Assembly: GCA_964563105.1 (NCBI GenBank)
Contig: CAZLXM010000002.1
Coordinates: forward strand, 41,716 to 105,715
Length of the DNA stretch: 64,000 bases
Reading direction: 5' to 3'
From: an uncultured Bacteroidaceae bacterium
Lineage (GTDB): Bacteria; Bacteroidota; Bacteroidia; Bacteroidales; GCA-2748055
The position numbers were made by a program, and so were the translations under genes. Below the pieces are notes generated by a model. That model did not search any database. It had not been told where the DNA came from and saw nothing but the letters and a program-made list of their open reading frames with translations. Shown one piece after another: positions 46,435 to 47,620 of the stretch (positions are counted from its first letter, which is position 1; each line of letters opens with the position of its first letter).

Positions 46435-46450
46435 TTAATGATTGTTAATC
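46435..46450 (+). repeat. Left copy of 16-nt imperfect direct repeat flanking the protease cassette
   Basis: TTAATGATTGTTAATC versus TTAATGATTAATAATC at 47601-47616, 14 of 16 identical with the first 9 nt exact. Lies 13 nt beyond the protease stop. Confidence 0.4.
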
Positions 46451-46463
46451 AAACACAAACCGC

Positions 46464-47363
46464 TTATTTAATCAATTGTATAAAAGCTTTTCCTTCATGA
46501 TTTTCAATTATTTTAAAGGCTGGTGTTTGCGTTAAAGATATTATACAAGAATGATGGACACTTAGTACTTTATCTTGCAAATCATTATCAGATTCAAGGG
46601 ATTGTATCTTTAATCCTAACCTGTCTTTTAGTATATCAACAGGTAGATGTCTATCATGTGATAAAGTTAAGGCATGGCTCCCCAATTCCTTTATGACTCC
46701 GTCAACTATTTGATCCTTATTTGGTTCATTTTTAAACATATTTGTTTTTAACCAATCACTAACCATAGACTCAGACCATTTTATAGCTTTTTCACATTCG
46801 CCAATCAAAGTAGGAGAATATCTTGATAAAATAGTTTGCCAAACTGGAATAGTTTTAGGATTTGAAGATATTTCAGTTTTCGCTCTTTCAAATTCTTCAA
46901 TAATTCCATGTGTCGGTAATCCATTAATTTGAGGATCGATCGGACCCAAATTGGAGTGTTTGCCCATGATTATTTCTTTACAAGAACATGCGATCATTGT
47001 TCCTGCGGACATAGCAATTTGTGGGACTATTGCACGAATATCATTACCAAAAACTGATTTTAAATAATGTACTATTGATTCGGTGGCACCAATTGAACCA
47101 CCCGGGGTATGAAGTACTAAATCAAGTCCTTTTGATTTATCAAGACCTTTAATCGTCGACATAAACCCCATTTTATCTGAATCCACAATATCAAACCTGA
47201 AGCCATGTTGAGCTAAATTGCCTTTTTGAAGCCACCCTGAATAATAAACAATAACATTTCTACCTGTCTTTTCAGATAACTCGGCAATATATTTCCTCCG
47301 AATATGGTCAAAAGCATTTGGTTGTGCACCAATTTCTTTTAAAATATCGTTCCAGGCAGGCAT
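46464..47363 (-). CDS. SDH-family / SppA-like Clp-fold serine protease
   Basis: '[19 protein letters not shown]' and '[33 protein letters not shown]' match the ClpP/crotonase-fold serine-protease core of the serine-dehydrogenase-proteinase (S49-related) family. 299 aa with no signal peptide. Confidence 0.7.
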   Translation of the reverse strand: [299 protein letters not shown]

Positions 47364-47365
47364 AT

Positions 47366-47572
47366 CTATTCTACAATAAGGCCAATATTAGAGTTAATAG
47401 ATAATCTAGTCCAATGAAATTCAACTTTTTTATCTTCATTAAATTCTTTCACTAATTCAGGTAAAATAGGATTGGTATCAGAATAATTTTCTTCATAATT
47501 TTCTATTCCGATCATTTTATAAAAATCATTAGCCTCTTGTATTTTATCTAATTTAATTTTTTTGTAATTCAT
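47366..47572 (-). CDS. Small acidic hypothetical protein, co-transcribed with the protease
   Basis: 68 aa, E/D/N-rich, no recognisable motif. 2-nt gap to the protease ATG. A canonical promoter lies immediately upstream. Confidence 0.45.
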   Translation of the reverse strand: MNYKKIKLDKIQEANDFYKMIGIENYEENYSDTNPILPELVKEFNEDKKVEFHWTRLSINSNIGLIVE

Positions 47573-47588
47573 TGTATAAAGTTTTTAT

Positions 47589-47620
47589 CAAATATAAATT
47601 TTAATGATTAATAATCCAAA
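47589..47620 (-). promoter_or_regulatory. Bacteroidota sigma-A type promoter (TTTG-N20-TATATTTG) for the small-ORF/protease cassette
   Basis: The minus strand reads TTTG (47620-47617), a 20-nt spacer, then TATATTTG (47596-47589). 16 nt separate the box from ATG 47572. Confidence 0.55.
47601..47616 (+). repeat. Right copy of 16-nt imperfect direct repeat flanking the protease cassette
   Basis: TTAATGATTAATAATC. Lies within the promoter spacer, 28 nt beyond the small-ORF start. Confidence 0.4.

Follow-up and report, generated by a model that had tools for sequence, protein, structure and literature searches.

The described anti-phage system closest to the element considered here is FS_HP_SDH_sah of DefenseFinder, which we take to consist of a hypothetical protein and an SDH_sah protease and to come from phage-inducible chromosomal islands (PICIs), on which this combination has reportedly been validated as anti-phage. 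The element itself is a cassette of two genes, a 68-aa open reading frame (ORF) and a gene for a ClpP-like serine protease, found in a 64,000-nt stretch of DNA (the window) from an uncultured Bacteroidaceae bacterium (contig CAZLXM010000002.1, positions 41,716 to 105,715 of the forward strand). A gene name of the SDH_sah system is attested in the literature (PMC13532340). Beyond this mention, our literature search for SDH_sah or PF01972 proteases in anti-phage roles returned nothing relevant, and the Tai paper (PMC11364771) proved to have no relation to this protease.

As in FS_HP_SDH_sah, a small hypothetical-protein gene lies directly upstream of a PF01972 protease gene and is co-oriented with it (here a 68-aa ORF at a distance of 2 nt), and protease homologues 48-54% identical to that of the window are carried on E. 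coli prophages and on a satellite-like island. The locus differs from that system in that the window copy lies in a Bacteroidota polysaccharide locus with no mobile-element genes around it, and in that its small partner is linked to the proteobacterial partners only by an iterated profile. The cassette is probably a Bacteroidota member of this known, mechanistically unexplored protease-based defence family. Its mobility, the conserved pairing and co-divergence of its two products, the intact predicted catalytic residues and the prophage, satellite and defence-island contexts of its relatives were all observed. The reading that we consider probable, with modest confidence, is that of a self-contained, horizontally mobile two-gene accessory module of the FS_HP_SDH_sah kind, acquired within species-level divergence into a variable slot of the polysaccharide locus and taking no part in sugar assembly.

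A portable unit gained in a polysaccharide locus

The two genes of the cassette are as follows.

46464 to 47363, minus strand: protease gene, 299 aa, SDH-type ClpP-like serine proteinase (PF01972, phrog_11747, AlphaFold2 (AF2) model, Foldseek).
47366 to 47572, minus strand: small partner gene, 68 aa (ORF, tblastn, iterated hidden Markov model (HMM), dN/dS, AF2 model).

An earlier annotation made from the letters of the DNA (the sequence-only reading) had described two minus-strand ORFs 2 nt apart, and both the ORF coordinates and the stop/start junction, which reads TAG-AT-ATG and thus gives the 2-nt gap, agree with it. The cassette is also set off by non-coding gaps, as had been stated, of 146 nt upstream (47573-47718) and 68 nt downstream (46396-46463). 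It is flanked by glycan-assembly genes (Bac_transf, Asn synthase-like, FemAB-like, DUF354 and epimerases), and with no integrase or phage genes nearby the window copy is not carried on a recognizable mobile element.

The acquisition can be followed by comparison with L120, a contig of the same species, for which three further features are needed.

46396 to 47726, no strand assigned: 1331-nt segment standing in place of the 132-nt spacer of L120; the two spacers do not align.
47719 to 48498, minus strand: flanking glycan-locus gene, 259 aa, no Pfam match; at the breakpoint its final codons depart from those of L120.
44878 to 46395, minus strand: flanking initiating sugar transferase gene, Bac_transf, 505 aa (PF02397, E 5.8e-26); the indel breakpoint lies exactly at its ATG.

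The Bac_transf orthologue on L120 is 96% identical and the flanking DNA is 96-97% identical on both sides: positions 1-114 of L120 correspond to window 47840-47727 (95.6%), and those from 247 onward to window 46395 downward (96.8%). Between them L120 carries no cassette, the 3' end of the 259-aa gene being joined to the transferase ATG by the 132-nt spacer. Among more distant orthologous loci, compared through the Bac_transf orthologues P0126, P0127 and P0129, the slot is empty in L123 and L124 and is occupied by a different, 509-aa gene in L121 and L122.

Close copies of the cassette occur elsewhere in unrelated surroundings. One, in L119, has a protease 95% identical to that of the window and a 70-aa ORF 2 nt before it, and its neighbours are an HHH-motif gene on one side and recJ on the other; a second, 93% identical, stands beside a type VI retron in L001. 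DNA homology of the window to these two loci is limited to 47621-46462 and ends at the protease stop codon, delimiting the unit given below together with its predicted promoter.

46462 to 47621, no strand assigned: conserved portable unit (promoter, small ORF and protease), with 83% DNA homology to L119 and L001.
47589 to 47620, minus strand: predicted cassette promoter of the Bacteroidota type, TTTG-N20-TATATTTG, an exact pattern match 16 nt before the ATG.

The promoter proposed by the sequence-only reading was found at the expected distance from the ATG and recurs at the same place in L119 and L001, its boxes being kept in all three contexts amid otherwise unrelated L119 and L001 surroundings. 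With 3 occurrences against 4.3 expected, the motif shows no enrichment by count in the window, and a promoter function for TTTG-N20-TATATTTG is inferred from its pattern and conservation. Because L120 lacks the cassette, the shared DNA comprises only the promoter and the two ORFs, and the promoter is kept in three contexts, the cassette is a portable, self-promoted unit gained in the window lineage. This supports the proposal of an independently acquired and independently expressed module.

The location of the cassette inside a glycan locus and co-oriented with it, together with the few homologues that also adjoin glycosyltransferase or epimerase genes, could be taken to mean that it has a housekeeping function in the glycan pathway, such as the processing of an assembly enzyme by the protease. 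We consider this highly improbable: it is contradicted by the absence of the cassette from L120 and from two more distant orthologous loci, by the close homologues in unrelated contexts and by the cassette's own promoter. The absence of any conserved link to sugar genes likewise accords with the original statement that no role in sugar assembly is obvious.

The sequence-only reading had further proposed that the unit is bracketed by direct repeats, which are located as follows.

47601 to 47624, plus strand: upstream repeat copy, 16-24 nt, inside the promoter spacer and the conserved unit; likely a chance match.
46435 to 46458, plus strand: downstream repeat copy, 3 nt past the end of the conserved unit.

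A 14/16 match between 46435-46450 and 47601-47616 does exist and extends to 24 nt at 79%, but it does not mark the boundaries of the unit. The indel breakpoints relative to L120 are at 47727 and 46395, one copy lies inside the conserved unit and the other just beyond it, and we therefore rejected the repeats as its limits. They are conserved in neither L119 nor L001. In shuffled sequence at least two such matches arose in 4/100 cases, and a dozen comparable AT-rich repeats lie within 1.5 kb; the 14/16 repeat is thus probably due to chance, a caveat already raised on account of its AT-richness and of the right copy lying in the promoter spacer. Accordingly, of the expectation that the ~1.15-kb unit would be present or absent among orthologous loci with boundaries at the repeats, the first part stood (it is absent from L120 and from L121-L124) and the second did not.

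The pair in bacteria, archaea and viruses

The protease family is very large, every one of the 8000 candidates that were scored having passed. Members from several Bacteroidota orders are 80-93% identical to the window protease, and those from Proteobacteria, Actinomycetota, Planctomycetota, Nitrospirota, archaea and viral contigs 50-60%. The synonymous distance (dS) between the window protease and those of L119 and L001 is saturated (~1.2) at 93-95% protein identity, with a ratio of non-synonymous to synonymous change (dN/dS) of 0.03. It follows that extreme constraint, and transfer besides, lies behind the high identity between Bacteroidota orders, which need not mean recent spread.

In nearly all of 119 loci a 50-100-aa ORF lies immediately upstream of the protease gene, with a gap of -29 to +12 nt, so that the two genes do co-occur outside this genome, in bacteria, archaea and viral contigs alike, as the proposed module would have it. 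An iterated HMM seeded with Bacteroidota partners converged on the partners in 63/119 loci at E<0.01; none of 2516 decoy frames matched, and none scored below E 0.69. At most of the other loci there is likewise a small ORF built in the same way, but its sequence has diverged too far for this HMM to score it. The profile reaches the partners in proteobacterial prophages (L074, L102-L109) and that of E. coli Nissle (E 4e-6 in a small search); the remaining E. coli partners escape it. Fixed presence of the pair at this position, lack of conservation of the small ORF and lack of co-occurrence elsewhere had been named beforehand as the three outcomes that would count against an independent module; all were looked for, and none was found.

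Several loci of this collection deserve separate mention. L001, L002, L018 and L031, with proteases 57-93% identical, are binned as Acholeplasmataceae, Hyphomicrobiales, Enterobacteriaceae or Thermoplasmatales metagenome-assembled genomes, either because the gene has spread widely by horizontal transfer or because a mobile gene was binned wrongly. In a Flavobacteriaceae locus (L006, 5732-5988) the partner gene is split over two frames (two HMM matches) beside an intact protease gene, which suggests a frameshift or an assembly error. In the RefSeq/PGAP annotation of some E. coli genomes the partner ORF is missing (L117, 12001-12201; L127, ~8620-8820) and one protease copy is called a hypothetical protein; annotation-based surveys therefore undercount the pair.

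Direct repeats of 20-64 nt, different from locus to locus, flank the module in several loci that are phylogenetically far apart; their positions in the respective loci are these.

L058: 1103-1166 and 2451-2511.
L002: 4910-4953 and 6434-6478.
L101: 5595-5644 and 6904-6956.
L054: 4194-4240 and 5384-5430.
L079: 5566-5588 and 6972-6994.
L009: 1713-1740 and 2981-3008.

Some of these repeats take in the ribosome-binding site and ATG of the downstream gene, or a terminator hairpin. Bracketing repeats were seen in 9/93 loci, against 10/454 shifted controls (p 0.0017) and 11/326 flanks of neighbouring genes (p 0.023), which suggests insertions that duplicate tens of target bases. The weak repeat in the window may or may not belong to this signature.

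Prophage and defence contexts

Four E. coli variants of the module were examined, with proteases 48-54% identical to that of the window and each with an upstream ORF of 66-74 aa. They sit in the gap between the Q antiterminator and the lysis genes or between lysis and terminase genes of lambdoid prophages, or else at the end of a satellite-like island with integrase, HTH, Icd and RepA genes. The Q-lysis and lysis-terminase sites of lambdoid prophages are classic moron and immunity slots; the prophages concerned have a prohead protease of their own, and the module stands apart from it. Porphyromonas phages carry a copy beside HicAB, and on Bacteroidota prophage contigs copies lie near head, tail or integrase genes. 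Carriage by plasmids is rare, with ~4-5 full-length copies in 72,556 plasmids.

No recurrent partner gene emerged among the 275 immediate neighbours at 81 genomic loci. Strong PADLOC matches among these neighbours include a type VI retron, BREX PglZ with BrxL, a CBASS cyclase, GajA, restriction enzymes of types I and IIG, and the candidate systems PDC-S02, PDC-S20 and PDC-M19, with integrases also nearby. In L001 (4226-5346) the type VI retron lies directly upstream of the module (HTH_VI E 2.9e-27; RT_VI E 4.7e-77). The prophage moron slots, the satellite-like island and the defence-gene neighbours all favour the toxin-antitoxin-like or phage-defence type of module that had been suggested from the sequence, and as judged from these contexts the cassette most likely serves phage defence rather than sugar synthesis.

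Several observations weigh against this assignment. No mobile-element or defence gene adjoins the cassette in the window, and many homologues are found among housekeeping genes. Defence neighbours amount to ~10-15% of the 81 loci, a raw share given without a matched background. PADLOC matched neither window protein, nor the E. coli and Porphyromonas homologues; this last point is uninformative, since PADLOC has no model for the family and is silent even on the E. coli copies. As regards the mode of action discussed below, the idea of a latch draws on motif conservation and on analogy (the self-bound C-termini of SppA and the 1510-N/stomatin peptide complex), and a role of the partner as substrate or adaptor is just as plausible.

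The protease

The assignment of the 299-aa product to SDH-type proteases by the sequence-only reading was upheld by profile search: it matches PF01972 over residues 20-254 (E 1.3e-25; 90.5 bits against a gathering score of 31.3), and it matches phrog_11747, a family of unknown function, over its full length (E 2.7e-97). The 17- and 29-residue motifs that had been quoted as the core of a Clp fold are indeed present. The best NCBIfam match is the equivalog model NF047768 (SDH family Clp fold serine proteinase) with 92.8 bits (E 2.3e-26), a score below the curated cut-off of 250, and the protease is therefore a divergent clade of the SDH family. By inspection, its N-terminus has no hydrophobic signal segment, as had been noted, and no hydrophobic or membrane segment was seen elsewhere in the protein.

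No solved structure is close to the protease by sequence. The AF2 model (predicted local distance difference test score 91; predicted template-modelling (TM) score 0.89) has a Clp-type core followed by a helical C-terminal domain, and the nearest solved folds identified by Foldseek are ClpP, SppA and the NfeD protease 1510-N (TM-scores of ~0.33-0.43, identity 10-16%). With SppA (S49) and 1510-N the protease shares a Clp/crotonase-like fold and a GxSxG-type serine in the same strand-turn-helix. It differs from them in the low TM-score (0.36-0.40) and identity (11-16%), in the lack of a membrane segment and the extra C-terminal helical domain, and in its conserved Asp and His, which point to a Ser-Asp-His arrangement rather than a Ser-Lys dyad. 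The score against the SppA model TIGR00706, 25 bits with a cut-off of 155.45, does not indicate membership. ClpP provides the best structural and sequence match to the core (residues 70-128), yet the cassette has no gene for a partner ATPase, the protein has ~110 extra residues and its catalytic residues come in another order; the scores against the ClpP models lie below their cut-offs as well (TIGR00493, 11.6 bits against 308.6; PF00574, 18.1 against 20.2).

The predicted nucleophile is located as follows.

47007 to 47009, minus strand: codon of Ser119 (in AMSAGT), invariant, aligning with the active-site serine region of ClpP and 1510-N.

In 93 distinct homologues S119, H85, S137, D143, H236, R238, H239, H270 and H271 are invariant. 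For PF01972 we take Ser, Asp and His, in that order, to be the catalytic residues; candidates for these roles, as read from the 93 sequences, are S119 and D143 together with H236, H239, H270 or H271. Because the predicted catalytic residues are invariant in these homologues, the protease looks catalytically competent.

The likeness to ClpP-related and S49 head-maturation proteases, in the form of weak profile matches (NF045542, E 2.9e-7; phrog_53, E 2.7e-8) and of frequent carriage by phages, raises the question of interference with capsid maturation, in which the protease, as a distant relative of ClpP/S49 prohead proteases, would mis-process the scaffold or capsid of an incoming phage and the small protein would be a specificity adaptor or an assembly chaperone. 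The matches are consistent with each other, and the E. coli copies adjoin packaging and head genes of prophages that already have a prohead protease. We nevertheless hold this explanation to be decidedly unlikely, as the scores are far under the family cut-offs (30.6 bits against 120 for NF045542, so that membership is not indicated), the similarity is confined to a Clp core of ~70 residues, the gene occupies moron slots outside the head modules and many copies lie in non-phage chromosomal sites.

The small partner

The 68-aa partner is acidic (13 D/E against 9 K/R) and without a recognizable motif, as had been described: no match at a meaningful E-value was obtained in Pfam, NCBIfam, PHROG or PADLOC, and none of these scans revealed a DNA-binding domain. 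It is conserved and coding, as the proposed two-gene module presupposes. The ORF is found by tblastn directly upstream of the protease gene in L001-L016, and its dN/dS of 0.21-0.37, compared with 0.03-0.07 for the protease, indicates purifying selection and therefore a real gene under weaker or diversifying constraint. The partner evolves ~7 times faster than the protease, as is apparent from the paired identities of partner and protease (53% vs 89%, 42% vs 81% and 17% vs 58%). The distance matrices of the two proteins co-vary (Mantel r 0.81, equalled in 0/999 permutations). A 374-aa protein (P0280) considered as a fusion of partner and protease turned out to be an unrelated repeat protein.

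The AF2 model of the partner alone has a helix at residues 3-20 and a disordered tail. Overall, the protein is built of this N-terminal helix, a variable acidic linker and a conserved C-terminal HWTRLSINSNIG strand. Two blocks are conserved: the end of the N-terminal helix, [ED]-h-x-x-x-[FY]-x-x-h-G-h, and a C-terminal hydrophobic, Ser/Thr-rich strand, h-x-h-x-h-[SN]-x-[ST]-[ST], which reads HWTRLSINSN in the window partner and RLSNSTN, ISYSNTT or VSYSSGT elsewhere.

The partner could be a precursor, in which case the protease would be a dedicated maturation enzyme cutting a 68-aa pro-peptide near its C-terminal motif to release an active signal or toxin peptide. Strict pairing, co-divergence and a disordered linker would fit such a role, and the conserved C-terminal strand could be the site of recognition or cleavage. 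On the other hand, the unit has no signal peptide, transporter or modification enzyme, the partner is acidic rather than hydrophobic, and the most conserved parts are its two ends rather than a core peptide; we regard a maturation protease as very unlikely.

The layout of the cassette, in which a gene for a small acidic protein precedes a larger enzyme gene and is coupled to it (a gap of 2 nt here and of -29 to +12 nt in most loci), is also that of type II toxin-antitoxin (TA) modules. A small, fast-evolving and partly disordered upstream partner, with a protease as switch or effector, is a feature shared by such modules and by the CalpL-CalpT and gasdermin-protease pairs, which are protease-based defence systems. 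The cassette differs from all of them in having no DNA-binding antitoxin domain, sensor domain, cyclic-nucleotide link or pore-forming partner. A selfish addiction module, with the protease as toxin and the small protein as a labile antitoxin, maintained by post-segregational killing and without a dedicated anti-phage role, would account for the fast evolution and disorder of the partner, for the patchy and context-independent distribution and for the copy beside HicAB in a Porphyromonas phage. It agrees less well with the rarity of the module on plasmids and with a partner devoid of a DNA-binding domain, and a role in defence better explains why prophage moron slots and defence neighbourhoods are so strongly preferred. 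We consider pure addiction unlikely, bearing in mind that TA and abortive-infection roles are not mutually exclusive.

A possible mode of action

Tight translational coupling, strict co-inheritance, the partly disordered and fast-evolving nature of the partner and its conserved extended C-terminal motif together suggest a physical complex of protease and partner. The C-termini of peptides are bound as extended active-site strands in SppA and 1510-N (titles of PDB entries 4kwb and 3viv), which offers a model for docking of the partner. We favour a latch or antitoxin-like role, with the protease released on infection; the latch mechanism, its targets and a defence function in the source organism are what we infer from the observations above. 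In the scheme proposed, the two translationally coupled products would form a complex in which the N-terminal helix anchors the partner to the protease and the hydrophobic Ser/Thr-rich C-terminal strand fills the substrate groove as a pseudo-substrate or latch. Phage infection would remove or out-compete the labile partner, or stop its resupply, and the freed Ser119 protease might then cleave host or phage proteins and so block phage production.

In a broader version, which is tentative and in our estimate rather unlikely to hold as a whole, the small partners would form one hypervariable pan-prokaryotic family with two fixed elements, an anchoring helix and a C-terminal Ser/Thr-rich active-site plug. 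The pair would then be a general "latched protease" immune switch of bacteria, archaea and viruses, spreading as a recombinase-free, promoter-bearing cassette that leaves locus-specific target duplications of 20-64 nt.

Other features of the polysaccharide locus

The native spacer of L120 (115-246) carries a promoter-like box, TAtcTTTG, in front of the Bac_transf gene, and window 46396-46463 has no such box. No terminator was detected after the cassette in a scan for sigma-70 promoters and terminators, which is uninformative for Bacteroidota. Given the loss of the box and the lack of a terminator, the downstream glycan genes may depend on read-through, the transferase and the genes after it being read, possibly, from the cassette promoter or from the upstream operon.

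The locus differs from L120 by a second indel, as the window lacks ~2 kb of L120 (4572-6582) with one epimerase gene and most of another; a 103-aa ORF at 41773-42084 of the window is the 3' remnant of an epimerase gene, with the junction at ~42070-42089. Intergenic slots of orthologous loci (L121, 4142-5281 and 6347-7876; L123, 2242-2598, 4145-7059 and 9615-9986) hold other cargo, namely an ATPase_2 gene, AAA_14/DUF4143 ATPases, the 509-aa gene (with a weak ceramidase match), a PDDEXK_3 protein and a 23S_rRNA_IVP-family protein; PADLOC found no match among the L121 and L123 cargo. The glycan locus seems to act as a sink for accessory genes. Glycosyltransferase, epimerase, Polysacc_synt_2 or YjbH exopolysaccharide genes are also found next to several further copies of the module, and insertion beside surface-polysaccharide genes may recur.

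Implications

The pair of a hypothetical protein and an SDH protease is listed among anti-phage systems with its mechanism still unexplored, and a pair of contigs from one species, with and without the cassette, provides a clean natural experiment. The picture across phyla is one of obligatory pairing, a partner evolving ~7-fold faster, two partner motifs and invariant protease residues, and these motifs and residues are concrete mutational targets that make the latch model testable. Polysaccharide loci determine phage receptors, and they can act, as seen here, as landing pads for defence cargo. Finally, the insertion replaced the putative native promoter of the downstream transferase gene, so that a defence cassette may influence the expression of glycan genes.

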